Virus record (IMG/VR): IMGVR_UViG_2884371665_000002
Strand: one strand, 5' to 3'
DNA: 64,000 nucleotides
Source: a virus
Taxonomy: Duplodnaviria; Caudoviricetes
Below are positions 2,713 to 60,884 of the stretch, one piece after another. The notes under the pieces were generated by a model that had not been told where the DNA came from, searched no databases, and was given only the letters and a program-made list of their open reading frames with translations. Position 1 is the stretch's first letter. Every line of letters starts with the position of its first letter. A program made the position numbers and the translations under genes.

Positions 2713-3993
2713 TTAAGACTCTGAAACCGGATCTGGTTGCAAATTCATTTCCCGGATCATTCGCCGTTCGTCAATATGAGCGTAGTGCTTCAAATATTCT
2801 ATTGAACTTAATCCCATCATTCGAGCCGTCGTGTGTACGTCAGTGGCATGTTCGTTCAAATTATGGTCGGCAAACGTCTTTCGGGCTGACTTAGTGGTCA
2901 ACGTTTTATGAAACCCTAAATAGGCTGAAATCAGCGTAAGACCGTCGTTAAACTGCGTCAGCGAGCAGGTCGGTAGTTTATCAAACCCGCCGTATTTTTC
3001 TGCCAGGCTAAAGTTTATTGGCTTGAGTGGGGCTATCAAATACTTTTTGGTTTTCTTCCGTTTCATCCGAATGAACGAAACGCCCGATACCACCCGCAAA
3101 TAGCTTGATGGAGCAGCCACAAACTGTTTATATTCGGCGTGGTGGGTGCCAATCTGCTGCATAAAAATATAGGCATCCCGCAACCGTTCCAGTCGAACAG
3201 CCCGCTCGGGCTTGATGGACAATGAATGAAAATTGAAGGTTTGGAGCAGAGCCAGCTCATCGGGATAAAGAAAGACCATATCGTCAGGATCAGGTTCGTC
3301 TTTTTCCACCTTGTAGGGTTTAATGGAATTACTCCGAACGGCCTTTTTGAGCACGGCATAATCAAGCAGACTTTTGATGTAATACAGATGCTTTCCCAGA
3401 TAATTGATCGCAAATTTGCGTTGCCCCCACGCTTTAAACTCATTGAGCCAGGCTTCGTCAATCTCATCAATATAAGCCCTGGTCTGCTTGCTGTCGACCA
3501 GGTAGTCCAGGATATTGTTGGTGTATTTCTGGTAGGCTTCGTAGGTATCACCGCTAATTACATCTTTACTGGTGGCCAACTCGTCAGGGTCATCGCTAAT
3601 CCGTTCTTCGTGCTGCTTTAATAACCGTTCCAGCATGGTCTGAATGGTGTAGCGGACTCGCTTTTGCCCTCGATACACTTCCAGAACTTGTTGGGCGGTG
3701 ACGTGTACGTCGTCCTGGTCTAATAGATTGAAGGCTTTTTTTAGCTTCACCTTCATTCGCTCGAGCAATTGATTGTCCAGATCAGCCGTGGGTGCAGCAT
3801 CAGTAACTTTCTGTTTTGCCTGGTTCCAGTGCCTGGGGTTTACCTTGACATTGGTTGAAATGTCAGCCGTGTAGGTGTTGACCGTGATTCGGGCATAAAG
3901 AGCCACTTCAGCCGGTTTCGGCTTGCCCCGTTTGGAAGGTCGGTAATTGCGTCTGAGTTTGAACAGAACCTGCATTCGATTTTGGTAAAACAT
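2713..3993 (-). CDS. int: Tyrosine recombinase/integrase (Bacteroidota type: arm-binding, SAM-like and catalytic domains) with an atypical catalytic motif
   Basis: N-terminal LYARITVN...ISTNVKV...WNQ arm domain; C-terminal LTTKSARKTFA and KHYA boxes. Confidence 0.85.
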   Translation of the reverse strand: MFYQNRMQVLFKLRRNYRPSKRGKPKPAEVALYARITVNTYTADISTNVKVNPRHWNQAKQKVTDAAPTADLDNQLLERMKVKLKKAFNLLDQDDVHVTAQQVLEVYRGQKRVRYTIQTMLERLLKQHEERISDDPDELATSKDVISGDTYEAYQKYTNNILDYLVDSKQTRAYIDEIDEAWLNEFKAWGQRKFAINYLGKHLYYIKSLLDYAVLKKAVRSNSIKPYKVEKDEPDPDDMVFLYPDELALLQTFNFHSLSIKPERAVRLERLRDAYIFMQQIGTHHAEYKQFVAAPSSYLRVVSGVSFIRMKRKKTKKYLIAPLKPINFSLAEKYGGFDKLPTCSLTQFNDGLTLISAYLGFHKTLTTKSARKTFADHNLNEHATDVHTTARMMGLSSIEYLKHYAHIDERRMIREMNLQPDPVSES

Positions 3994-9004: not shown

Positions 9005-9078
9005 GGCAGGATAGCTCAGTTGGTAGAGCATGACTCTTTAAAAGTCAAGGTCGCTGGTTCGATCCCCGCTCCTCGCCA
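9005..9078 (+). tRNA. tRNA with UUA anticodon (ochre-suppressor-like or Lys-derived), imperfect acceptor and T stems
   Basis: GGCAGGA-TA-GCTC AGTTGGTA GAGC-A-TGACT CTTTAAA AGTCA-AGGTC-GCTGG TTCGATC CCCGC-TCCT(C)GCC-A; anticodon TTA at 9038-9040. Confidence 0.8.
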
Positions 9079-9495: not shown

Positions 9496-10260
9496 TTGGC
9501 TCAACGCGCACCTAGTAGGGCGCATCTTTCCCAAATTTATCTCGCTATGAAATCCTCCGGCACAATTGCTCGCAAGCCCAATACCGGTATACCAAAATTC
9601 GAAGCCGATCCGATCAACAGCACCTTTCGCTGGGAGCTATATCTGACTGCTGGTCGTAAAGGCAATAGCGTCCCTTTAATGGATGGCTATAGCAAAGGCA
9701 TGGGCTTTGAGAATACCAACAGGCTAGAATTGCTTTATAAAAAATTGATTAACCCTGTTTTACCCTATTTAACTCGCTGTGATTTGATCGTCATTTATGA
9801 AAACGATAGACGTATTCTCAAGCAGCTTCAACCTAAAATTCTCGAGCTCTATCCTCACGACTTTGTTGCTCATGGCTGGGTCAAGGAAACTGCCGTTATA
9901 ACCGATTTTCTTTCGACGTATTACAATGAATATGTGCATACCGGTATAATGCCACCAATTGAGGATCGTCGGAAAAATGTACGTCAGACGGTCTATTTCG
10001 CCGAATTAGATCACAGCAAACAAAATTTTGAAACGTTGGAGCAACTACGAGCATTCTGCGAGTCCAAATTTTCCAAATACTCAGCTCAGTGCATGACTGG
10101 CTGGTTTTACCGACACGCCGACTTCCAACCTGAATTATTTGAGGCAGATAAAAGTGAAGCCTTAGCCCATACAATACACACAGCCAGTACTTTGGAGGCT
10201 GCTCAGGCCGCTCAAGTTGGTTTAAATAGTTTGTATGGAAAACACGCCAGTAAACGCTGA
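9496..10260 (+). CDS. Hypothetical protein (probable ATG start at 9547)
   Basis: Long ORF; no motif recognised. Confidence 0.6.
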   Translation: MAQRAPSRAHLSQIYLAMKSSGTIARKPNTGIPKFEADPINSTFRWELYLTAGRKGNSVPLMDGYSKGMGFENTNRLELLYKKLINPVLPYLTRCDLIVIYENDRRILKQLQPKILELYPHDFVAHGWVKETAVITDFLSTYYNEYVHTGIMPPIEDRRKNVRQTVYFAELDHSKQNFETLEQLRAFCESKFSKYSAQCMTGWFYRHADFQPELFEADKSEALAHTIHTASTLEAAQAAQVGLNSLYGKHASKR

Positions 10261-10269
10261 GAATGAGCC

Positions 10270-10617
10270 ATGTTAACACTCAAGCTGTATCCAATAGATG
10301 TGCTCGTGATGATTGGTTATCTACGCGCTAATCTCAATGGTCAGGATCAAGTACCTCTGGTCCACAAATCAGTTAACACGCTTGTGTTATTAAATTATCT
10401 CAAAAGCTGGAAAACCCTAAAAATGATCAGCTGGAGTCAGCGACGAGCCGATAAACTCTATTCGTTTTCTATGCCGGAGGTAGTCGCTAAAGCTTTATAC
10501 TTGGATATGCTGTCGATGGTCCTCACCAGTCATCAACAACTTTTTCTGGGTAAGCTGGACCATGCAATTGTCAATTATCAGATCCCCATTACCCAGATGT
10601 ATAACATTGGGGAGTAA
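10270..10617 (+). CDS. Hypothetical protein
   Basis: Follows the previous gene and precedes a terminator. Confidence 0.55.
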   Translation: MLTLKLYPIDVLVMIGYLRANLNGQDQVPLVHKSVNTLVLLNYLKSWKTLKMISWSQRRADKLYSFSMPEVVAKALYLDMLSMVLTSHQQLFLGKLDHAIVNYQIPITQMYNIGE

Positions 10618-10650: not shown

Positions 10651-10680
10651 AAGCCAGACAGCCTTGTAGTCTGGCTTTCT
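10651..10680 (+). terminator. Intrinsic terminator ending the early operon
   Basis: aagccagac...gtctggctt stem followed by tct. Confidence 0.6.
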
Positions 10681-10846: not shown

Positions 10847-13800
10847 ATGTCCGAACTAGCCCTAAAACTGGTTAAAGCAAATAGAAGAACTAAAGCAAAA
10901 TTCCTGGATCTTGGAAACTGTGGTATAGTTGGTGAAGTACCGGAAGAAATAGGAGATTGTATCTGGTTGGAAGAGTTGTCATTTTCTCAAGAATGGTATA
11001 ATTTCAATTCCCTAAATTCAACATCCAATATTGGCTTACCAAACAAAATTGACAGCTTACCTCCATCTTTTATTAAATTAACTAACTTAAAAAACCTTTG
11101 GATAAATGGAAGCGAAAGTAATAAATGGGGATTAAAAGATTTATCTCTACTTAAAACTCTCACAAAGTTACAACAGCTTACTTGCTCTTTTACTGAAGTG
11201 CAAAGCTTGCTTCCACTTAATAGTTTATTACATCTAAAATTACTCTACTGTGATGAGACGCAGGTCAGCGACCTGTCTCCCTTAGCCAACTTAACTCAGC
11301 TAAAACTGGTATCTTTTGACAAGACTGCCATTGCTGATCTGTCTCCCTTAGCAGGACTATCCTCGCTTGAAAAATTATACTGTGATGAGACGCAAGTCAA
11401 CGACTTGTCTCCCTTAGTTAACTTAACCCAGCTTAAGATTCTATCTTTTGACAAGACTGCCATTGCTGATCTGTCTCCCTTAGCAGGACTATCCTTGCTT
11501 GAAAAATTTTATTGTACTGAGACGCAAGTCAGCGACCTGTCTCCCTTAGTTAACTTAACCCAACTTACTATTCTTAGTTGTTCCACGACTACCATTGCTG
11601 ATCTGTCCCCCCTAGCGGGACTATCCTTGCTTGAAAAATTATACTGTATTGAGACACAGGTTAGCGACTTATCCCTCTTAGCCAACTTAACCCAACTTAC
11701 TATTCTTAGTTGTTCCAAGACTACCATTGCCGATCTGTCCCCATTATCGAACCTAACCTTGCTTGAAGAATTATACTGTGATGAGACGCAAGTCAACGAC
11801 TTGTCTCCCTTAGCCAACTTAACCCAACTTACTCTTCTTAGTTGTTCCAAGACTACCATTGCCGATCTGTCCCCATTATCGAACCTAACCTTGCTTGAAA
11901 AATTATACTGTGATGAGACGCAAGTCAACGACTTGTCTCCCTTAGCCAACTTAACTCAGCTAAAACTGGTATCTTTTGACAAGACTGCCATTGCTGATCT
12001 GTCTCCCTTAGCAGGACTATCCTTGCTTGAAAAATTTTATTGTACTGAGACGCAAGTCAGCGACCTGTCTCCCTTAGTTAACTTAACCCAACTTACTATT
12101 CTTAGTTGTTCCACGACTACCATTGCTGATCTGTCCCCCCTAGCGGGACTATCCTTGCTTGAAAAATTATACTGTATTGAGACACAGGTTAGCGACTTAT
12201 CCCTCTTAGCCAACTTAACCCAACTTACTATTCTTAGTTGTTCCAAGACTACCATTGCCGATCTGTCCCCATTATCGAACCTAACCCTGCTTGAAGAATT
12301 ATACTGTGATGAGACGCAAGTCAACGACTTGTCTCCCTTAGCCAACTTAACCCAACTTACTCTTCTTAGTTGTTCCAAGACTACCATTGCCGATCTGTCC
12401 CCATTATCGAACCTAACCTTGCTTGAAAAATTATACTGTGATGAGACGCAAGTCAACGACTTGTCTCCCTTAGCCAACTTAACCCAACTTACTCTTCTTA
12501 GTTGTTCCAAGACTACCATTGCCGATCTGTCCCCATTATCGAACCTAACCTTGCTTGAAAAATTATACTGTGATGAGACGCAAGTCAACGACTTGTCTCC
12601 CTTAGCCAACTTAACTCAGCTAAAACTGGTATCTTTTGACAAGACTACCATTGCTGATCTGTCTCCCTTAGCAGGACTATGCTCGCTTGAAAAATTTTAT
12701 TGTACTGAGACGCAAGTCAGCGACCTGTCTCCCTTAGTTAACTTAACCCAACTTACTCTTCTTAGTTGTTCCAAGACTACCATTGCCGATCTGTCCCCAA
12801 TATCGAACCTAACCCTGCTTGAAGAATTATACTGTGATGAGACGCAAGTCAGCGACCTGTCTCCCTTAGCGAACTTAACTCAGCTAAAGATTCTATCTTT
12901 TGACAAGACTACCATTGCTGATCTGTCCCCCCTTGCGGGACTATCCTCGCTTGAAAATTTTTTTTGTGCTGAGACGCAAGTCAGCGACTTGTCTCCCTTA
13001 GCCAACTTAACTCAGCTAAAACTGGTATCTTTTGGCAAGACTACCATTACCGATCTGTCCCCATTATCGAACCTAACCCTGCTTGAAGAATTATACTGTG
13101 ATGAGACGCAGGTCTGCGACTTGTCCCCCTTAGCCAACTTAACCCAATTAAAGATTCTTACTTGTCGAAAAATTGCTATTGCTGATCTGTCTCCCTTAGC
13201 AGGACTATCCTTGCTTGAAAAAATAAACTGTAACGAGACGCAAGTCAACGACTTATCTCCTTTAGTTAACTTAACTCAGCTAAAACTGGTATCTTTTGAC
13301 AAGACTGCCATTGCTGATCTGTCTCCCTTAGCAGGACTATCCTTGCTTGAAAAATTTTATTGTACTGAGACGCAAGTCAGCGACCTGTCTCCCTTAGTTA
13401 ACTTAACCCAGCTAAAACTGGTAGCTTTTGACAAGACTACCATTGCTGATCTGTCTCCCTTAGCAGGACTATCCTTGCTTGAAAAATTTTATTGTACTGA
13501 GACGCAAGTCAGCGATCTGTCCCCCTTAGCCAACTTAACCCAACTTACTATTCTTAGTTGTTCCAAGACTACCATTGCTGATCTGTCCCCCCTTGCGGGA
13601 CTATCCTCGCTTGAAAAATTATACTGTATTGAGACACAGGTTAGCGACTTATCCCCCTTAGCCAACTTAACTCAACTAAAGGTTCTTAATTGTCGAAAAA
13701 TTGCTATTGCTGATCTGTCCCCATTATCGAACCTAACCTTGCTTGAAGAATTATACTGTTCTGAGACGCAGGTTAGCAATCTATCTCCATTAGTCGATCT

Positions 13801-16378
13801 AACCAATCTGAAGGTCCTATCATGTAGCAATAACTCCGTTGAAGATTTGTCGCCCTTAGCCGGCCTAACCCTGCTTGAAAAAATATACTGTGATGAGACA
13901 CAGATTAAAGATCTATCCGCTTTATCAGGCTTAAGTCTGCTAAAGCAATTGTCTTTCCCTCGAACATTAGTCAGGGACTTATCACCTTTACGCTGCCTAA
14001 TAAATTTAGAGGAAATTTCTTGTTATGATACAAAAGTTGAGGATCTATCTCCATTATCTGCTTGTACTCAATTAAGAATATTATATTGTTACAAAACGCC
14101 CATTAAAACTTTATCATCTATTACCTGGATTAACTTTAATAAGCTCACAAACCTATCAATATCGCAGACCCAAGTTGATGATCTTTCACCAATTCTTCCG
14201 TTGCTCGAAAAAGGATTATCTGTGAACTGGAAATTATGGGGAGATGGTATTCATATAAGGGATTGCCCACTTATTGAACCTCCATCTGAAATTGCTAAGC
14301 AGGGGAATGAAGCCATTTTGCGCTATTTTGAGGCCAAAAATCAGCAGGGCGAAGAAAAATTATATGAAGCAAAAATTGTCATTGTTGGTGCTGGTGAATC
14401 AGGGAAAACTACGCTCATTCAGAAACTTCTTGATCCTACCCACCAAGTACCAAACTTAGAAGATAAACGCACGGAAGGAATTAAGGTAAATTCTTATGCA
14501 TTTATCAGGCGAATAGAAGGTCAGCCCAAATTCTTACAGGCAAATCTTTGGGATTTTGGTGGTCAGGAGCTTTATCATACAACCCACCAACTGTTTTTAA
14601 CACCAGATACTCTCTACATATTATTAAATGATAATCGAAAAAACGACACAGACTTTTACTATTGGCTCAATATAGTTACCCTTCGAGCCAGCAAAAAATG
14701 TCCAATCTTACTGGTTTTTAATGCTAAAGACAATGCCGTCCGTCAGATTGTTTTAAGTGATGAATTATTTTTTGCATTTGAAAATCTTGTTCCGCAAGTC
14801 ATAGATGTCAATTTTGCAGATAAGGATCTAACTAAAGTCCATGGAATGAGAGAACTTATTGAAGAAAATTTCTCTCAGCTTGACGTACTCGGTAAGGCCT
14901 TTCCCGCTTACTGGGTAAAAGTGCGCGAAATGCTAGGTAAATTAACCGACGAACACATCAGTTGGGCACGATTTGCTCAAATCTGTAATCAATGCGAAGT
15001 TGAGGACGATCAACAAATGCGTATTTTAGCTCAAACGCTACATAACTTAGGAGTAATACTTTATTTCCCAGATGTCTTTGGGTTGGAGTATTTAATTATT
15101 CTGAAAATGCAATGGTGTATTGATGCAATTTATGGTGCCTTAGATACCCAAGAGATTATAAACAATAATGGGCGTTTCAATGAAGATGTCTTGGCTCGCA
15201 AATGGTCGGACAATCGATTTTCTGGCAACAGATTGCAATTGCTCAAGCTCATGCAGCATTTCGATCTGTGTTATCCAGTAGAAGGTACTTCTAATTTTAT
15301 AGCTCCACAATTACTTCCGCTGGAAGGGATTCGCGACTCTGCCTTTCCTACTAATGGAATAATTATACACCAGTTTACTTATACATTTATGCCTGCTGGT
15401 ATGCTCACTCGATTAATTGCCCGATTGAGCCGCTACATTAAAACACCGTATGTCTGGCGTATGGGGGTAACCCTTCAATGGGATGAAGGAACGATCGCAG
15501 AAATAATTGAAAATCAGTATTCTCGTCAGATTGTTATTCGCGTCGCGGGTACCGAACGTAAACGCAGACTCGCAGAAATTCGTAAGACGCTTTATGATCT
15601 TCACAAAAACTTTCTTGGATTAAAGTTTGATGAATTAGTAGCCTGTAACTGCCCGGACTGTATCGACAGCTCGACTCCTACTACGTTTCCCTTGCATGAA
15701 TTAGAGCAAGATGCTGAAGATAACGACGAGGTAAAATGTAGAAATGGCCAAAGAAAAAAAATTCCAGCCCATCAGATTCTTGATGGAATTGAATACTTTG
15801 ATAAACCCCGAGTTTTCATCTCCTACTCGCACAAAAACGAAGACTTAAAAGGTGAATTCCGCACAATGATTGCTCCATTGGAGCGGGAAGGTCACTGGAA
15901 AATCTGGGATGATCGGTGGTTATTACCAGGAGATCAATGGAATAAAGAAATTATGCGACATCTGGCAGAAGCCAATGTGATTGTGTTGATGTTGACGGCT
16001 GATTTTTTTGATTCAGATTATATCTATGATATTGAAATGTCCCGAGCTATTCAACGTCACGAATCTGGGGAGGCCTTGGTTATTGGTATTGTCGTCAGTG
16101 ACTGTATGTGGGAAGAGACGCCGCTCGCAAAAATCCAGATGATTCCCAAAGACGGACAACCTGTTGTACGTTTTGCTAATCGAGCTGAAATCTGGAAAAC
16201 TGTAGCAAATAAAATAAAGGAAACTTTAGCCATTCGGGAGGGAAAGAGAAAACGTAAAAGCGGGTGGGACCTAGAAAAATTAAACAAATTAAATTTACTA
16301 GAACCCTCTTTTGTCATCAATAGCAACATAGCGATCTCAGATATCCGCCAAGCTAGCCTGCATGGCAGATTTGATTGA
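10847..16378 (+). CDS. Roco-family protein: LRR array - Roc GTPase - COR - TIR
   Basis: About 45 22-aa LRRs; P-loop GAGESGKTT (from 14387); WDFGGQ (G3); LVFNAKD (G4-like); COR-like HNLGVILYF / PAGMLTRLIARL; TIR RVFISYSH...IWDD...SDYIYDIEM from 15800. Confidence 0.92.
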   Translation: MSELALKLVKANRRTKAKFLDLGNCGIVGEVPEEIGDCIWLEELSFSQEWYNFNSLNSTSNIGLPNKIDSLPPSFIKLTNLKNLWINGSESNKWGLKDLSLLKTLTKLQQLTCSFTEVQSLLPLNSLLHLKLLYCDETQVSDLSPLANLTQLKLVSFDKTAIADLSPLAGLSSLEKLYCDETQVNDLSPLVNLTQLKILSFDKTAIADLSPLAGLSLLEKFYCTETQVSDLSPLVNLTQLTILSCSTTTIADLSPLAGLSLLEKLYCIETQVSDLSLLANLTQLTILSCSKTTIADLSPLSNLTLLEELYCDETQVNDLSPLANLTQLTLLSCSKTTIADLSPLSNLTLLEKLYCDETQVNDLSPLANLTQLKLVSFDKTAIADLSPLAGLSLLEKFYCTETQVSDLSPLVNLTQLTILSCSTTTIADLSPLAGLSLLEKLYCIETQVSDLSLLANLTQLTILSCSKTTIADLSPLSNLTLLEELYCDETQVNDLSPLANLTQLTLLSCSKTTIADLSPLSNLTLLEKLYCDETQVNDLSPLANLTQLTLLSCSKTTIADLSPLSNLTLLEKLYCDETQVNDLSPLANLTQLKLVSFDKTTIADLSPLAGLCSLEKFYCTETQVSDLSPLVNLTQLTLLSCSKTTIADLSPISNLTLLEELYCDETQVSDLSPLANLTQLKILSFDKTTIADLSPLAGLSSLENFFCAETQVSDLSPLANLTQLKLVSFGKTTITDLSPLSNLTLLEELYCDETQVCDLSPLANLTQLKILTCRKIAIADLSPLAGLSLLEKINCNETQVNDLSPLVNLTQLKLVSFDKTAIADLSPLAGLSLLEKFYCTETQVSDLSPLVNLTQLKLVAFDKTTIADLSPLAGLSLLEKFYCTETQVSDLSPLANLTQLTILSCSKTTIADLSPLAGLSSLEKLYCIETQVSDLSPLANLTQLKVLNCRKIAIADLSPLSNLTLLEELYCSETQVSNLSPLVDLTNLKVLSCSNNSVEDLSPLAGLTLLEKIYCDETQIKDLSALSGLSLLKQLSFPRTLVRDLSPLRCLINLEEISCYDTKVEDLSPLSACTQLRILYCYKTPIKTLSSITWINFNKLTNLSISQTQVDDLSPILPLLEKGLSVNWKLWGDGIHIRDCPLIEPPSEIAKQGNEAILRYFEAKNQQGEEKLYEAKIVIVGAGESGKTTLIQKLLDPTHQVPNLEDKRTEGIKVNSYAFIRRIEGQPKFLQANLWDFGGQELYHTTHQLFLTPDTLYILLNDNRKNDTDFYYWLNIVTLRASKKCPILLVFNAKDNAVRQIVLSDELFFAFENLVPQVIDVNFADKDLTKVHGMRELIEENFSQLDVLGKAFPAYWVKVREMLGKLTDEHISWARFAQICNQCEVEDDQQMRILAQTLHNLGVILYFPDVFGLEYLIILKMQWCIDAIYGALDTQEIINNNGRFNEDVLARKWSDNRFSGNRLQLLKLMQHFDLCYPVEGTSNFIAPQLLPLEGIRDSAFPTNGIIIHQFTYTFMPAGMLTRLIARLSRYIKTPYVWRMGVTLQWDEGTIAEIIENQYSRQIVIRVAGTERKRRLAEIRKTLYDLHKNFLGLKFDELVACNCPDCIDSSTPTTFPLHELEQDAEDNDEVKCRNGQRKKIPAHQILDGIEYFDKPRVFISYSHKNEDLKGEFRTMIAPLEREGHWKIWDDRWLLPGDQWNKEIMRHLAEANVIVLMLTADFFDSDYIYDIEMSRAIQRHESGEALVIGIVVSDCMWEETPLAKIQMIPKDGQPVVRFANRAEIWKTVANKIKETLAIREGKRKRKSGWDLEKLNKLNLLEPSFVINSNIAISDIRQASLHGRFD
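11138..14197 (+). repeat. Tandem 66-bp LRR-coding repeat array with higher-order 132-bp and 528-bp duplications
   Basis: 11442-11955 is repeated nearly exactly at 11970-12483; alternating LYCxETQVxDLSPL and SCSKTTIADLSPL/SFDKTAIADLSPL units. Confidence 0.9.
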
Positions 16379-16499
16379 GTCGTCTCAATTACACGTTAGT
16401 TTAATTTGAATTCGTTGCACGGCATAATATTGCAGTATTCTGCCATTATAATCAGTGCATTTTAAATCTACACTTATAAATTAAAACTGTTTTAAACAT

Positions 16500-16982
16500 A
16501 TGGATAAGCCCCGAATTTTTATCTCTTACGCCCACAAAAATGAAGATCTGAAAAATGAATTTCGGAGCATGATTCGTCCATTGGAACGGGAAGGTCACTG
16601 GCAGGTCTGGGATGACCGCTGGCTGCTTCCAGGTGATAACTGGAATGAAGAAATTATGCGACATCTGGCAGAAGCGAATGTAATCGTTCTGATGCTGACA
16701 GCCGCCTTTTTTGATTCCGATTACATTTATGACGTCGAAATGACAAATGCTATTCAACGCCACATAGATGGCGATGCACTCATGATTGGTGTTGTTGTAG
16801 ATGACTGCCTGTGGGAAAAAACTCCACTTCGATCAATTCAGATACTTCCTAAAGATGCATTGCCTGTTTCGCGCTCGCTAAATAGAAATGAAATCTGGAA
16901 AACCATTGCCAATACAATCCAGCATACTTTCGCTGTTCGGTCAGGTGATCAAAAAAGAAAAGGAGGATGGAATTCCATTTGA
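16500..16982 (+). CDS. Stand-alone TIR-domain protein, paralog of the Roco TIR
   Basis: DKPRIFISYAHKNEDLK...WDDRWLLPGD...FFDSDYIYDVEM aligns without gaps to the Roco C-terminus. Confidence 0.9.
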   Translation: MDKPRIFISYAHKNEDLKNEFRSMIRPLEREGHWQVWDDRWLLPGDNWNEEIMRHLAEANVIVLMLTAAFFDSDYIYDVEMTNAIQRHIDGDALMIGVVVDDCLWEKTPLRSIQILPKDALPVSRSLNRNEIWKTIANTIQHTFAVRSGDQKRKGGWNSI

Positions 16983-17137
16983 TTTGATTTGATTTGATTT
17001 CATTTTAACATCTTATCCGATTTCAAAATTTACTAAAAAAAGCATCTTTAAAAAAAATTTTGAAGTTTTATTCTCGCTAAAGTTTACTTATTTCTGGTTA
17101 TCTTTCCAGTAATTTTCCAATACTCTCCGTAACTATA

Positions 17138-17722
17138 ATGTACTTCTCTGAACCAGTACTTTTCGAGATCCCGGTACGTCCGCGGATTAGAAAGTACATC
17201 GCCGTCAAACTCCAGGGCGCGGACGGCCGCCCACAGCCCCTGCTGGTTACTCCAGACGCTCAGGGAGCCGGCCTGATGCTTTGGGCAATGGCGCAATCTG
17301 AAAAAGTTATGCTGCAAACCGGTTGGCGACGAGGAGCGGCCGGAAAAAACTTTCTTCAGGACGGTTCGGGCCGCATCATTGCTCCCCTCGACATGACTGA
17401 GCGCCTAGGGCTTGGTATCAGTGAGTTTCACAAATCACGCCACCAGTATCTTTTGAACCACGCTGAGCTGGAGGTCTTTTCTCAGTTTGTTGATTACATC
17501 ATTCTCAACGAAATGGTGTCGTTTTGCCAGCAGGATCAATCGAGTCCCCCCCTGTTACTCATCAAGCAGTTCACCGATCGGTACGATTTTTCGGAAGATG
17601 ATCTCAACGAAGGATCCCTGCGCGTTGCCTATTGGCGATTCCGAAAAGGACTTGCGGCAACCAACTTCGATGTTCGCGTTACCCAACTTCAGCATTTTGT
17701 GGCCTACGAAATGGCCGCCTAA
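17138..17722 (+). CDS. Conserved phage protein, candidate late transcription regulator
   Basis: IPVRPRIRKYI N-terminus and IKQFTDRYDFSEDDLNEGSLRVAYWRFRK helical C-terminus. Its stop abuts the first 18-bp box. Confidence 0.5.
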   Translation: MYFSEPVLFEIPVRPRIRKYIAVKLQGADGRPQPLLVTPDAQGAGLMLWAMAQSEKVMLQTGWRRGAAGKNFLQDGSGRIIAPLDMTERLGLGISEFHKSRHQYLLNHAELEVFSQFVDYIILNEMVSFCQQDQSSPPLLLIKQFTDRYDFSEDDLNEGSLRVAYWRFRKGLAATNFDVRVTQLQHFVAYEMAA

Positions 17723-19791: not shown

Positions 19792-21240
19792 ATGAATCGG
19801 CAATGGCGAACCATTTCTTCTTTGTTACGTACCCTTTGGTGCATCGAGCCAATCTGGGCCGAACAGCATTTACCACTCGTTCAAAGCTTTTTGAGCGGCC
19901 AGTTTCCCATCCAAACCAATGAAGACGACGAAACCCAAACCCAGGATCCAATTGCTGGCAAAACGTTCGCAATTGCTGCTCAGTCAGGCAGTAACTATGC
20001 CGTCCAAAATCGCTACGCGCTTGACGATCCGGAACTGCCCGACAATTCCGTCTACGTGCTGGATATGCGGGGCGTCGTCGTCAAAGAGTCGAACTGCTGC
20101 TCGATCGGTACCGAAGAATACGCCCGGCTCATTCGCCAGGCGTATGCCCACGAAAAAATTATTGGTTGCGTCGGCCTGGTCGACAGTCCCGGTGGCCAGC
20201 TGTCGGGAACACCCACGCTGTACGATGTCATTCGGGATCCGATCAAGCCTTTTGTGGTCGTCGTCAATGAAGGACTCATGGCCTCGGCGGCTTACTGGTA
20301 TTCCTGTGGTGCCGATTATATCTACGCCAGCCAGCAAACCGATCAGATCGGCAGCATCGGTGTGTACATCGAATTTGACGATGCCACCGAGGCCCGTGAA
20401 AAAATGGGCATTAAGCGCCATACGATCTATTCCGATCGCTCCAGCCAGAAAAACAGGCCCTTCCGGGATGCTAAAGAAGGAAAAACCGAACTCATCCGGG
20501 AAGACTTGAACCAGGCTGCGGACCTGTTCCGGGCTGCTGTCGAGCAGGGTCGAGGCAAGCGCCTGAAGGTTGCCAAAAAAGGCGGTCCCGATGTGTTTGA
20601 AGGCGGTCTGTTTTACGCAGGCAAAGCTATTGAACTGGGTCTGATCGATGGCTACGGTAATCTGGAAACAGCCATTGCCAAAGTAGCCGAACTGGCCAGC
20701 AAACCCAAAGGGGAAGCGGTGGAAGAGCTTCCCGATGACCATGACGAAACCGGCGATAACACGCCTGAAGTCGTTGATCTGCCCGACAACGACGATAGTG
20801 ACGAGCCTACTGCCTCTGTCGAACCTACTACCTCTCAATCCAATCTAATCTCTACAACTATGTCCCTGTTTGGTAACCCACACAAGGTGCTTTCGGGCCT
20901 GGCCGGTGTCGAAGGCTCAAAAATTACAAATGAGCAGCTCAACGCGGCCAATGCCGAACTGGATGCTGAAAAAATTACGGGCGTACGCGTCATCAGTACG
21001 ACTTATCTGGAGCAGGCCAAGCAATCCATTGCGGCACTCAACCAGAAAAATGCCGAGGTCGAAACACTAACCAAAGAGCGTGACGATGCCCGCGCTGAAG
21101 CCGCCAAGTTCGGATCGCAGCCTGGTGCCCAGCCGACCAAATCCGAAAAAGTCGAGGAGAAAATCACGACGGTCGAAAAAGACACCTACATCAGCCAGAC
21201 TGATGCCGATCTGGCAGCCATGAAGGCCCAAATGCAGTAA
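19792..21240 (+). CDS. S49 (SppA/ClpP-like) prohead protease with C-terminal scaffold-like coiled coil
   Basis: VDSPGG, LMASAAYW and IGSIGV motifs; acidic linker followed by a coiled coil. Confidence 0.88.
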   Translation: MNRQWRTISSLLRTLWCIEPIWAEQHLPLVQSFLSGQFPIQTNEDDETQTQDPIAGKTFAIAAQSGSNYAVQNRYALDDPELPDNSVYVLDMRGVVVKESNCCSIGTEEYARLIRQAYAHEKIIGCVGLVDSPGGQLSGTPTLYDVIRDPIKPFVVVVNEGLMASAAYWYSCGADYIYASQQTDQIGSIGVYIEFDDATEAREKMGIKRHTIYSDRSSQKNRPFRDAKEGKTELIREDLNQAADLFRAAVEQGRGKRLKVAKKGGPDVFEGGLFYAGKAIELGLIDGYGNLETAIAKVAELASKPKGEAVEELPDDHDETGDNTPEVVDLPDNDDSDEPTASVEPTTSQSNLISTTMSLFGNPHKVLSGLAGVEGSKITNEQLNAANAELDAEKITGVRVISTTYLEQAKQSIAALNQKNAEVETLTKERDDARAEAAKFGSQPGAQPTKSEKVEEKITTVEKDTYISQTDADLAAMKAQMQ

Positions 21241-21314: not shown

Positions 21315-22391
21315 GTGGCAACAGTAACGCAAACCGACATCACCGCGATTCAGAATTACGCGGGAACATTCGACAAAAAAATCATTACGCAAATCGTCAA
21401 TGGCCTCGATATCGCCAAAGATCTGACGGTTCGGCGTAACCTGACGGCTCCCGTCACCTTACCAAAATTCTCGGCTGAAGACGGATTCCGGCCGGTGGAT
21501 ACCTCCATCGAAGAACCAGACGGTTCGTCGGGTACATTCGGGGTTCGTAAACTCATCCCACGCACCGGGATGAAGATCCTTAAAATCGTTCCGGAAGATC
21601 TGCGCGGCACCTTCCTCTCGGAAGGTCTGGATCCAAACGCGAAAGAGTATCCAGCTGGTTTTGCGCAGTATTTCTGGGAAGCGCAAATCAAAAAACTTCA
21701 GGCTGAAATCAACAATAACAGCTTCTACGGCGTGGATTCCTTTGATATCACAGCCTTTGATGCGGGAACAGCCTATAACGTTGATCAGAAGGTCCAGTAC
21801 AACAAGAGCTTCTATAAAGTGGTAACGGCCACTTCAGCCGGTCAAACGCCCGATACGCACCCAGCCAAGTTCAAGAAAATCAACAACTCGTCGGTTGCTA
21901 AAGGTCTCGGTACGATCATCGCCGAAGAGTATTCCACTCTTCCTGCCCGCAACAAAATCACAACGGGTGCCCTGGATAACACCAACGGCTTCGATAAGAT
22001 TACTGGTTTTTATACCTCGTTGCCGGAGGAAATTCGCCCGCTGGGTGGTGAGTTTAAAGTGTCGCAGTCTACGTACGACAAGTACATGCTGTCGGCCCTC
22101 AACAAATTCACCAACGGCACCAGCCTGCTTCAGGTACCTGGCAAACCGGGTGCTTCGGTTTACGGATCGGATGGCAAATGGATCATTAAGCCCTGCACGT
22201 GGATGGCAGGATCGGGCCGTATCATCGCGACGCTCGATGGCAACTTGCAAATGGGTACCGATCAGACGAGTGCCTTCAGCTCGATCGGCAACATCGTTCC
22301 ATTCCTGCACGGCTACAAGGCCATCATGAAAATGATCCTGGCTTTCCAGATCGCTGACCTCGAAGTACTCTTCGTTAACGATCAGGCTTAA
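21315..22391 (+). CDS. Major capsid protein with an inserted carbohydrate-binding-like module
   Basis: Directly follows the protease; 358 aa; ends KAIMKMILAFQIADLEVLFVND; insert at 21753-21881. Confidence 0.75.
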   Translation: MATVTQTDITAIQNYAGTFDKKIITQIVNGLDIAKDLTVRRNLTAPVTLPKFSAEDGFRPVDTSIEEPDGSSGTFGVRKLIPRTGMKILKIVPEDLRGTFLSEGLDPNAKEYPAGFAQYFWEAQIKKLQAEINNNSFYGVDSFDITAFDAGTAYNVDQKVQYNKSFYKVVTATSAGQTPDTHPAKFKKINNSSVAKGLGTIIAEEYSTLPARNKITTGALDNTNGFDKITGFYTSLPEEIRPLGGEFKVSQSTYDKYMLSALNKFTNGTSLLQVPGKPGASVYGSDGKWIIKPCTWMAGSGRIIATLDGNLQMGTDQTSAFSSIGNIVPFLHGYKAIMKMILAFQIADLEVLFVNDQA

Positions 22392-58529: not shown

Positions 58530-60281
58530 TCAATTTGAAAACTGAATACTCTGAAATAGCGTGATCATTTCTTTTGGAATAACCGAATGCATCTTCTTTA
58601 AGACTAAAAGTGCATTGCGGAAATGGTAAAGATTTTTTGTAAATGCCTTTAAAAAAACTTCACTTATTAAATCTTTACCCCGACAATTCAATAACCAGGC
58701 AGGGTAGTTTAGTTTTTGTCCCCCAATAAACTCTACCTCCACTGGTGTGTAATCAATTGTTGGGCTATTAGTTAAAGTAGCTGCTTTCAGATACGGCTCT
58801 ACTTGGTTGAAGATATAGTCTGCTATTAACTGTAATTCAACTGAAGACATCTCTGTAAACTTGGCTTCCTGACCAAACGCTATATTGACCCCCGCAATCT
58901 TTGGAGCCTTATCAAAGTGCAGCATTACAGCATAGACCAAAATTGGATCGATTAAATAGTTTTCTATGCTATAACGATTTAATACAAATAAATTCGGGGA
59001 ACTTTCATTTCCGGCATCTTCATCAATTAAACCATATATAAAGGTGTTCAATCCTGAGTTGACTAATTTTTTTACCCAATTATCAACTACAGTTTTGCCG
59101 CCAGATTTTTCGTTTGTGGATGCAGGAATGAATACAATTTGCCGATCGCGAGATAAGGATTCGACATCGTTAAGATGGCCGTAAATAGTTGTGTAAAACG
59201 AAACATCATCCTTGTCTTCCACAAGAACGTATTTGGTGTGCTCACCGACAAAGAGATAGCCTGATGTTAATAAAGAAATAGTACTACTTTTTGATTTAGA
59301 GGGAAGGATTGCGGTTTTATATTTTGTCATTTCATAAATTGAACTTTCAGGGGCGAATGCAATCGTTGATGGTGAATGTGTAGTCATGATCACCTTAGCG
59401 CCGTACTTTTTTACAATTGTATTAACGATATTTTCTATGAAATTTTTCGCCAATTGAGGGTGTAAGTGAGCATCTGGTTCATCTAATAAAAACAATGAAG
59501 GTACTTCTCCATTGACTTGCCCAACAAAAACGTGGAGCAAAAGCGTGATAATCACTTTTTCACCAGAAGATAAATAGGAGGGTTCAATACGATTATCGTG
59601 TCCAGTAGGACCATCTATATCAATAAAAGTCAAATGAAAGGTGGAAGAGTAATCCTTTTCCGTAGGTACCGTAATCCTATATGGAAGGTTAGCGTTAGCC
59701 AATAAGCTGTTTAGAATGTCCCATGGCTCATCTCCATATAATTCAACAAATTTTTCATGAGGCCAGCCTCTAAGGTTTATTTTGCTCAGGTAATTCGCCT
59801 TATATGTAAGGAAATACTGGTTAATTGAGGCTAAACTGACATTCTGTATACTAGTTTGTGGTCGATAATTTTCGTCAAATTCTTTAAATGTAATGTTGTT
59901 GATATCTAATCCTTTAGCCTTGAGATGATCGCTGATGGGCTTTGGACCTTGATGGCCTTCGAGCTCTCTTTTAAAGAATCCTTCATATAGGGCTTTCATA
60001 TCAGTTAAATAAGTCATCATATTGCCAGTAGCACTTTTAAGCTCTGGCCAATCGGCACCTAATGAAACCCAGTTGTTTGTAAGAGTAGTATCTATAATAT
60101 CTACGGCTGGAGAAGTTACATTTTTCCCCATTGTATTTCTAGCTTGCAGTGTTCTGGTTAACTGTTTTAGCAAAGCTGTTTTTCCAACCCCATTGATGCC
60201 GGTAATGACGACAAAATCAGGCAAATCGTCAGTTTCGAATTTGGTAAGTGGAGGCTGATCAGTATATATTTTGATCCTCAT
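58530..60281 (-). CDS. ABC-type (AAA_21-like) ATPase fused to a TOPRIM/DUF4435-like domain; OLD-family-like, putative defence nuclease
   Basis: Walker A GINGVGKT, signature LSSGEK, Walker B LFLLDEPD, H-loop TTHS; TOPRIM VLVED...LIDED...YSIENY; AT-rich. Confidence 0.8.
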   Translation of the reverse strand: MRIKIYTDQPPLTKFETDDLPDFVVITGINGVGKTALLKQLTRTLQARNTMGKNVTSPAVDIIDTTLTNNWVSLGADWPELKSATGNMMTYLTDMKALYEGFFKRELEGHQGPKPISDHLKAKGLDINNITFKEFDENYRPQTSIQNVSLASINQYFLTYKANYLSKINLRGWPHEKFVELYGDEPWDILNSLLANANLPYRITVPTEKDYSSTFHLTFIDIDGPTGHDNRIEPSYLSSGEKVIITLLLHVFVGQVNGEVPSLFLLDEPDAHLHPQLAKNFIENIVNTIVKKYGAKVIMTTHSPSTIAFAPESSIYEMTKYKTAILPSKSKSSTISLLTSGYLFVGEHTKYVLVEDKDDVSFYTTIYGHLNDVESLSRDRQIVFIPASTNEKSGGKTVVDNWVKKLVNSGLNTFIYGLIDEDAGNESSPNLFVLNRYSIENYLIDPILVYAVMLHFDKAPKIAGVNIAFGQEAKFTEMSSVELQLIADYIFNQVEPYLKAATLTNSPTIDYTPVEVEFIGGQKLNYPAWLLNCRGKDLISEVFLKAFTKNLYHFRNALLVLKKMHSVIPKEMITLFQSIQFSN

Positions 60282-60305
60282 CTGATATGTCTTATGGTTT
60301 AAGTG

Positions 60306-60884
60306 TTAATTGGTTTGCATTAGACCACGATGTCGCAGATAACTGTACAGCGTAGACTTTGATATGCCCAGCTGCCTGGCTATCTCTTTCACAGGTAACT
60401 TCCCTTCTTTATAGAGGCTTTCAGCAATTCGTGATTTATTCTCCGCTTCTTTTGATAATCCGGTCGGCCGACCGAGCAGTTGGCCACGCCGTCGAGCGGA
60501 TTGCAAACCTGCCTGGGTACGCTCTTTAATCAACTCCCGCTCAAACTCCGCCAGACTGGCAAAGATTCGGAACACGAGTCGACCCTGTGCTGTCGTGGTA
60601 TCGACGGGATCGTTTAGACTAATGAGTCCAATACTGTTTCTCTCCAGTACGTTAACCATCTCTACCAGGTGAGCTAGGGATCGGCCGAGCCGATCGAGTT
60701 TCCAGATTACTACCGTATCGCCTTCGCGCACGTGCTCGAGTAGTTTCGTCAGTTCAGGCCGGTCGCCTTTGGCTCCCGAGGCTTTTTCCTGAAAAATCTT
60801 TTCACAGCCCTGTGCTTTGAGAGCATCGAGCTGCATGGATAAATTCTGGTCCTGGGTGGACACGCGGGCGTAGCCGATTTTCAT
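60306..60884 (-). CDS. Serine recombinase (resolvase/invertase family) with a C-terminal HTH
   Basis: IGYARVSTQDQ, WKLDRLGRS, EFERELIKER, ISKSTLYSY. Confidence 0.92.
   Translation of the reverse strand: MKIGYARVSTQDQNLSMQLDALKAQGCEKIFQEKASGAKGDRPELTKLLEHVREGDTVVIWKLDRLGRSLAHLVEMVNVLERNSIGLISLNDPVDTTTAQGRLVFRIFASLAEFERELIKERTQAGLQSARRRGQLLGRPTGLSKEAENKSRIAESLYKEGKLPVKEIARQLGISKSTLYSYLRHRGLMQTN

Follow-up and report, generated by a model that had tools for sequence, protein, structure and literature searches.

A prophage-borne Roco protein with a C-terminal TIR domain, and a detached neighboring TIR, as a probable bacterial conflict protein in Spirosoma

The window analyzed here, a 64,000-nucleotide stretch of DNA (IMG/VR record IMGVR_UViG_2884371665_000002; Duplodnaviria, Caudoviricetes), contains a Spirosoma prophage with a gene for a 1843-residue protein that joins leucine-rich repeats (LRRs) to Roc, COR, and TIR domains, followed by a gene for a free-standing TIR of 160 residues. 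Both genes are AT-rich cargo (a moron) in a variable slot of the prophage. On balance, our data favor reading the large protein as a self-contained, NLR-like Roco (AP-GTPase) conflict or defense protein that was acquired horizontally as prophage cargo and probably confers protection by abortive infection, with the adjacent TIR an accessory at most. An earlier note on this DNA had described the same features and proposed that the pair forms a two-gene innate-immune system. Its observations are confirmed, and its interpretation is partly supported: the analysis bears out the logic of sensor, switch, and TIR effector but gives no support to a two-gene system.

The large gene is divided as follows.

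10847..16378, + strand: LRR-Roc-COR-TIR (Roco) gene, 1843 residues, single uninterrupted frame (open reading frame and Pfam)
11069..14197, + strand: LRR array, about 44 units of 22 residues, types A and B alternating (motif spacing, tandem-repeat analysis)
14372..14731, + strand: Roc GTPase domain, residues 1176-1295, with P-loop GAGESGKT at 1181, switch II DFGGQE at 1236, and G4-like NAKD at 1292 (Pfam, alignment)
14903..15787, + strand: COR-A, residues 1353-1490, and COR-B, residues 1506-1647, with a CxCxxC...C cluster at the end of COR-B (Pfam, alignment)
15800..16270, + strand: C-terminal TIR, residues 1652-1808, putative catalytic Glu E1730 (Pfam, alignment)
16271..16378, + strand: C-terminal tail of the Roco protein, 35 residues and stop (comparison with close relatives)

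Pfam matches to this protein comprised LRR_4 (E 6e-116, 18 stretches) and LRR_14, followed by Roc (E 3e-19), COR-A (E 1e-34), COR-B (E 3e-30), and TIR_2 (residues 1656-1766). These domains, together with the GAGESGKT and DFGGQE motifs, bear out the intact Roc GTPase, COR, and TIR that had been read from the translation. The protein has the features of a Roco protein, namely intact G1 and G3 motifs and COR-A/COR-B directly C-terminal of Roc, and the overall layout of AP-GTPase conflict systems (LRR, AP-GTPase, COR, and a variable C-terminal effector). Its Roc-COR portion aligned with the Chlorobaculum tepidum Roco protein (PDB 3DPU/6HLU) over ~460 residues (E 7e-46) and more weakly with LRRK1/2. 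The Chlorobaculum protein (3DPU, 6HLU, 8R4B) and human LRRK1/LRRK2 share with it the Roc-COR homology, N-terminal LRRs, P-loop, and switch II, but the former has no effector domain, and LRRK2 carries a kinase and WD40 where the present protein has a TIR. The G4 motif also differs, being NAKD rather than NKxD, though it fits the N-x-K-D/Q form of most of the 120 homologs compared. A cysteine cluster that the earlier note had singled out is present (C1600/C1602/C1605/C1631) but has no special status: 128-130 of 130 bacterial Roco homologs share it irrespective of their C-terminal effector, so we regard it as generic to bacterial COR-B. The 35-residue tail is absent from close relatives, which end a few residues past a G-W motif.

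In the LRR array, a DLSPL-type motif occurs 44 times, with a spacing of exactly 22 residues in 40 cases, close to the 45 or so repeats first estimated. At the DNA level the array is a tandem repeat with a 132-bp period (~20 copies, 82% match, at 11246-13899 on the + strand) and a strong negative GC skew (-0.21 to -0.28). Blocks of several units recur nearly verbatim (residues 142-361, for example, appear again from residue 362), implying recent segmental expansion or shuffling of the sensor. The array is cassette-like, and the closest relatives have far shorter LRR regions or a second Roc-COR in place of the LRRs. Two of these relatives (P0005 at locus L003 and P0008 at L007) have a duplicated Roc-COR-Roc-COR core before the same TIR, with no LRR family among their listed matches, and another protein (P0027) has a TIR at both ends. 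Such duplicated cores and double-ended TIRs indicate that the sensor end of this clade is highly plastic.

This architecture is already known and predicted, and its novelty had been overstated in the earlier note, which knew of no characterized defense system like it. A search with the Roc-COR-TIR portion returned 502 homologs, and many of the 120 matches listed combine LRR, Roc, COR, and TIR families. Kaur et al. 2021 (eLife; PMC8195603) describe AP-GTPase proteins in which LRRs that evolve rapidly at the N-terminus are combined with COR and with a C-terminal effector of one of at least 24 types, TIR among them, and predict computationally that LRR-AP-GTPase-COR-effector proteins are counter-invader systems. 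The layout set out there (LRR, the Ras-like AP-GTPase Roc, COR, and a variable effector that may be a TIR) is identical to ours, and the prediction agrees with the sensor-switch-effector logic proposed for the present protein. That description is computational, and its available text mentions neither phage carriage nor a detached paralogous TIR; the present gene differs in lying in a prophage cargo slot and in its unusually long array of ~44 LRRs. New here are carriage by a phage, the great length of the cassette-built LRR array, and the TIR pair, which is found in a single genome.

The same sensor-switch-effector plan is found in other defense proteins. Avs and bNACHT proteins resemble the present one in combining a sensor made of repeats, a switch NTPase, and an effector within a single chain, but their switch is a STAND (NACHT or NB-ARC) ATPase, whereas here it is a Ras-like GTPase with a COR dimerization module. 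Since its NTPase is Roc, the present protein does not belong to the NLR/STAND family, and "NLR-like" refers to its layout.

The distribution of related genes points to horizontal acquisition. The 120 homologs listed came mainly from Nostoc and other cyanobacteria, Saprospiraceae, and Haliscomenobacteraceae, and a genome scan found related loci in Verrucomicrobia as well. Close relatives were found in Saprospiraceae, Chitinophagales, and Flavipsychrobacter metagenome-assembled genomes, and the best TIR match within Spirosoma's own family reached 36% identity. The COR-B domain of the 1843-residue protein is the sole one in the 8.9-Mb genome, and Roco genes occurred in 27 of 150 genomes of the family, a patchy pattern. 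The single copy in the genome, the patchy distribution, and the closer kinship outside the family together indicate that the gene was acquired horizontally. Relatives were located on 62 plasmids. A phage that carries a Roco protein appears to be unusual: among 50,697 phage records none matched the Roc-COR or the TIR of this protein, IMG/VR yielded only two weak TIR matches (26-29% identity), and no near-identical DNA was found when the locus was compared by megablast with E. coli genomes and with phage records.

The prophage setting is defined by the edges of the cargo and by conserved phage genes on either side.

10651..10677, + strand: terminator-like hairpin, a 9-bp GC-rich stem then TTTCT, after the upstream 115-residue phage gene; left edge of the cargo (RNA fold, GC profile)
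17138..17722, + strand: first conserved downstream phage gene, 194 residues, no family match; right edge of the cargo slot (homologs at the same position in related prophages)
2713-3993: integrase, Bacteroidota-type
19792-21240: head-maturation protease

The insert has a GC content of 0.395, compared to 0.526 in the downstream structural phage genes, and with the hairpin at its left edge and phage genes on both sides it matches the AT-rich insert after a terminator that had first been noticed. Cargo-flanking genes with homologs in related elements lie upstream (9496-10260 and 10270-10617) and downstream (17138-17722 onward). The related elements were found in another genus of the family (G028, locus L112), in a congener (G056, locus L113), and as a second copy in the same genome (L111, C1:7781000-7799000), and they share the 194-residue gene, the protease, and capsid-region genes at 45-64% identity. 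The slot before the 194-residue gene differs in content in each related element, and none has a Roco or TIR gene there. We consider the two genes to be cargo in a variable slot because they lie between conserved phage genes, deviate in GC content, and occupy a position whose content varies among relatives. As to what else occupies this position, the slot of the G028 element encodes three small proteins in reverse orientation that bear type IX secretion C-terminal domains, and that of the second copy in the same genome encodes an HNH endonuclease. A mobile cassette with flanking repeats was considered and rejected, as no direct or inverted repeat of at least 10 bp occurs at the insert edges. 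A comparison with genus relatives, made to locate the prophage ends, did not find the left-flank protein in five genomes and showed the right-flank gene to be present in several copies. Also encoded in the window are an ArdC-like anti-restriction protein, tail-fibre-like proteins, and a tape-measure-like protein. A host protein from the flank shares a 90%-identity cluster with one of Spirosoma endbachense, which places the host in Spirosoma.

Behind the Roco gene lie the spacer and the second TIR gene.

16379..16499, no strand: spacer between the Roco and free TIR genes, AT-rich, 121 bp (sequence comparison, RNA fold)
16500..16982, + strand: free-standing TIR (P0002), 160 residues, putative catalytic Glu E80, start exactly at the TIR domain boundary (Pfam, PADLOC, alignment, model)

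The 160-residue protein matches TIR_2 as its sole Pfam family. Its residues 2-158 align without gaps with residues 1652-1808 of the Roco protein at 73% identity (judged by eye in the earlier note as about two-thirds or more), and the two TIR-coding stretches are 74% identical as DNA. The Glu of YDIEM/YDVEM (E1730 in the Roco protein, E80 in the free TIR), which had been proposed as catalytic, is present in both and invariant in all 36 TIRs aligned. It also lines up with the Glu of the bacterial structures 7uxr and 7uwg, the two top TIR matches in the PDB, at the position that is catalytic in AbTir-type NADases. Modeling of the free TIR with AlphaFold2 gave a confident structure (pLDDT 87) with the TIR (flavodoxin-like) fold. 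Among the top PDB matches of this model are the TIRs of SPARTA, Cat1, and SARM1, which are NADases, as well as non-enzymatic TLR-type TIRs. Both TIRs thus carry predicted NADase features, a TIR fold and a catalytic-type Glu, and both matched the PADLOC ThsB model PDLC00420 (E 2e-38 and 1e-33). In SPARTA, TIR-STING, and Cat1, the TIR is activated by assembly, and the SPARTA and Cat1 TIRs are among those that the free-TIR model resembles. A 5-bp tandem repeat (ATTTG, 5.8 copies, 16977-17005) begins at the stop codon of the free TIR.

Whether the two genes form a system depends largely on whether the pair is conserved, and our searches indicate that it is not. We compared 12 close genome loci, defined as those of the same tight TIR clade with at least 50% identity, and sought TIR neighbors within 8 kb. 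A second TIR was found at none of these 12 loci and at none of ~15 more distant Roco-TIR loci, nor does a TIR gene lie downstream of the four closest full-length relatives with readable neighborhoods (P0005, P0006, P0008, and P0025). At the 12 close loci, the TIR is always C-terminal in a long frame or in a frameshifted one. No free-standing close relative was found among 5.8 billion proteins, where the sole short relatives were pieces of broken Roco-TIR genes, nor by exhaustive phmmer search of 1.84 billion representatives. The phmmer matches with at least 56% identity were all C-terminal in proteins of 516-978 residues or were fragments of broken genes, and free-standing TIRs appeared only at ~46% identity or below. 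Judged by these comparisons, the free TIR is not a conserved or obligatory partner and would be an accessory at most, and the two-gene system that had been proposed is not upheld. The free TIR is, by the same evidence, a lineage-specific detached member of a TIR clade otherwise always fused to Roc-COR.

The strongest competing explanation is a true two-component system, in which the free TIR would be a trans-acting partner of the Roco protein, either amplifying an NADase assembly, as the earlier note had proposed, or keeping the Roco TIR capped until activation as its inhibitor or guard, as in plant RRS1/RPS4. The gene itself is compatible with this: its frame is intact from the TIR boundary, without frameshifts or stops, and the 56 clade-invariant columns, E80 among them, are all preserved. 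The 121-bp spacer has no strong terminator by RNA folding, so co-transcription with the Roco gene is plausible, and both TIRs fall in the same tight clade. Homotypic domain pairs encoded adjacently are a recurring design of conflict systems according to Kaur et al. (PMC8195603). A further fold match is the TIR heterodimer of RPS4/RRS1, which shows a shared fold and nothing further. Paralogous TIR domains are encoded side by side in RPS4/RRS1 and TLR-MyD88, as here, but those pairings are conserved and experimentally demonstrated, whereas the present pair comes from a single genome. Set against the two-component explanation are the absence of the pair from the close, distant, and individually inspected loci and the lack of any free-standing close homolog in either protein collection; the relatives evidently function with no free TIR. 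We therefore consider it unlikely that the free TIR is a dedicated partner, and the fuller version, a phage-captured, GTPase-switched, NLR-like receptor (a bacterial LRRK2 homolog with a TIR effector) whose split-off TIR acts in trans as an amplifier or safety catch, is similarly doubtful.

The divergence between the two TIRs bears on how the second one arose. Synonymous divergence (dS) is 1.64 and the ratio of nonsynonymous to synonymous divergence (dN/dS) is 0.12, and the TIR tree places both in a polytomy with TIRs of other genomes within one tight clade. A recent local tandem duplication is rejected on the basis of the 74% DNA identity, the dS of 1.64, and a tree that does not resolve the two as sisters. 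Nor do we accept the low dN/dS as proof of function of the free TIR, as it does not demonstrate selection on the detached form: both copies may still have belonged to full-length genes when most of the divergence (dS 1.64) accrued.

The free TIR may also be what remains of the 3' part of a second Roco-TIR gene. In its strongest form, this explanation holds that such a gene once occupied the slot and was truncated by recombination, that the free TIR is a non-functional or incidental leftover, and that the large gene acts alone. The tree does not make the free TIR sister to the adjacent TIR, and their divergence is as deep as that between Roco-TIRs of different genomes. The free TIR terminates a few residues past the G-W motif, like intact relatives, and the atypical 35-residue tail of the Roco protein would fit a rearrangement junction. 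The slot is variable among related prophages, and broken Roco-TIR genes with COR-B/TIR fragments are known from other loci. Yet no COR-B remnant was found in the spacer upstream of the free TIR, an ATG placed precisely on the domain boundary would mean that the break had fallen there by luck, and the frame is undamaged with every invariant residue in place. We consider a functionless leftover distinctly improbable. A related scenario, a second Roco gene that underwent an internal deletion but kept its own start and promoter, is unsupported, as the upstream regions are unlike each other (spacer versus the region upstream of the Roco gene: no significant similarity, with 348 of 500 shuffles scoring equally high) and the spacer has no COR-B remnant.

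Returning to the Roco protein as a self-contained conflict protein, we examined the neighborhoods of related loci. P0006, 66% identical over Roc-COR-TIR, has a type I restriction-modification operon immediately on one side and two GmrSD genes immediately on the other. P0008 neighbors genes for a Mrr-type nuclease, a CAP12-type TIR, and a PLD protein as well as IS91, and P0005 and P0025 adjoin toxin-antitoxin pairs. A defense neighborhood was thus found at four of nine related loci, with restriction or toxin-antitoxin neighbors, and not at the other five, a mixed context that we regard as suggestive. PADLOC recognized the TIR part as ThsB-like and called no system. Thoeris (ThsA and ThsB) shares ThsB-like TIRs with the present locus, where the TIR forms one chain with a sensor and a switch of its own. 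We excluded Thoeris because, despite the ThsB-type TIRs, there is no ThsA-like neighbor (by PADLOC or Pfam matches) and no SIR2_2 domain in the genome, SIR2_2 being the family that the genome-wide search covered.

We infer the ligand, switch behavior, NADase activity, and phenotype of the Roco-TIR protein as follows. The LRR array would sense a trigger, for which a protein from a superinfecting phage is the most plausible candidate, and the Roc-COR GTPase module would serve as a conformational and oligomeric switch. The C-terminal TIR, assembled with other TIRs, may then hydrolyze NAD+, and loss of NAD+ would abort the infection and protect the lysogen population. Within this reading the neighboring TIR, possibly transcribed together with the Roco gene, may enter or modulate the assembly of TIRs, or it may be a 3' remnant of a second Roco-TIR gene. 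The filament that the earlier note had the Roco TIR nucleate from free TIRs is pure conjecture.

Several points weigh against this reading. A literature search found no experimental study of any LRR-AP-GTPase-COR-effector protein. Five of the nine related loci (L021, L024, L027, L029, and L031) have solely housekeeping or metabolic genes as large neighbors, and PADLOC recognition is confined to the TIR. The invariant columns and boundary-matched frame of the free TIR fit a selected function better than a random remnant, so that the dispensability of the second TIR is itself an inference. Few of the prophage genes have PHROG or Pfam matches, and with many lacking any family match the phage is very divergent.

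A further explanation is that the Roco-TIR protein serves the phage or the host in a role other than phage defense, for example, as a regulated cell-death or signaling module of filament-forming Bacteroidota or as an LRR/TIR effector directed against eukaryotic grazers. Internalin-type LRRs of 22 residues and TIR proteins are also found in host-directed effectors, and the five loci with no defense context fit such a role. Roco proteins are, in addition, enriched in multicellular or filamentous bacteria, as stated in two studies (PMC7159879, PMC8195603). By eye, however, the N-terminus of the Roco protein shows no hydrophobic stretch resembling a signal, and no type IX secretion C-terminal domain came up in the Pfam search. 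Intracellular immune receptors have the layout seen here, in which a cytosolic Roc-COR switch is joined to an effector, and prophage carriage together with the restriction-modification, GmrSD, Mrr, and toxin-antitoxin neighbors at four loci suggests conflict with phages. A non-defense role is therefore very improbable in our view.

The sole proposal for the role of bacterial Roco proteins, the prokaryotic relatives of LRRK2, is that of a conflict system, and it is computational. The cargo position beside phage genes, in a prophage of a culturable Spirosoma, lends circumstantial support to an anti-phage role, and the lysogen offers a natural system for probing it. If the defense reading is true, a GTPase-switched class would join the ATPase-switched NLR-like defenses, and phages would be spreading such receptors. 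The detached TIR, at present a single-genome peculiarity, provides a simple way to ask whether TIR domains act in trans. If a captured receptor with a trans-acting TIR were borne out, it would be a bacterial counterpart of RPS4/RRS1 or of receptor-adaptor signaling, and a first functional handle on prokaryotic Roco proteins.

Other features of the prophage were observed away from the Roco cargo. ARAGORN identified a tRNA in the early region (9005-9077, + strand) with anticodon TTA, which would read the TAA stop codon (ochre-suppressor type). The gene after the head protease (21315-22391, + strand), probably encoding the capsid protein, has a match to the carbohydrate-binding module CBM_5_12 at residues 147-186 (Pfam E 4.5e-6, just over the cut-off). 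At the opposite end of the element, an AT-rich block (GC 0.37-0.40) that closely follows the tape-measure-like gene encodes a 583-residue OLD-family ABC-ATPase/Toprim protein (58530-60884, - strand), which PADLOC matched to AriAB (PARIS-like, 5e-35) and ATPase-Toprim_I-B (5e-27). An adjoining gene encodes a 192-residue protein with weak matches to HTH-type regulators (CasR, mad1), and this OLD-family block is a second candidate defense cargo.

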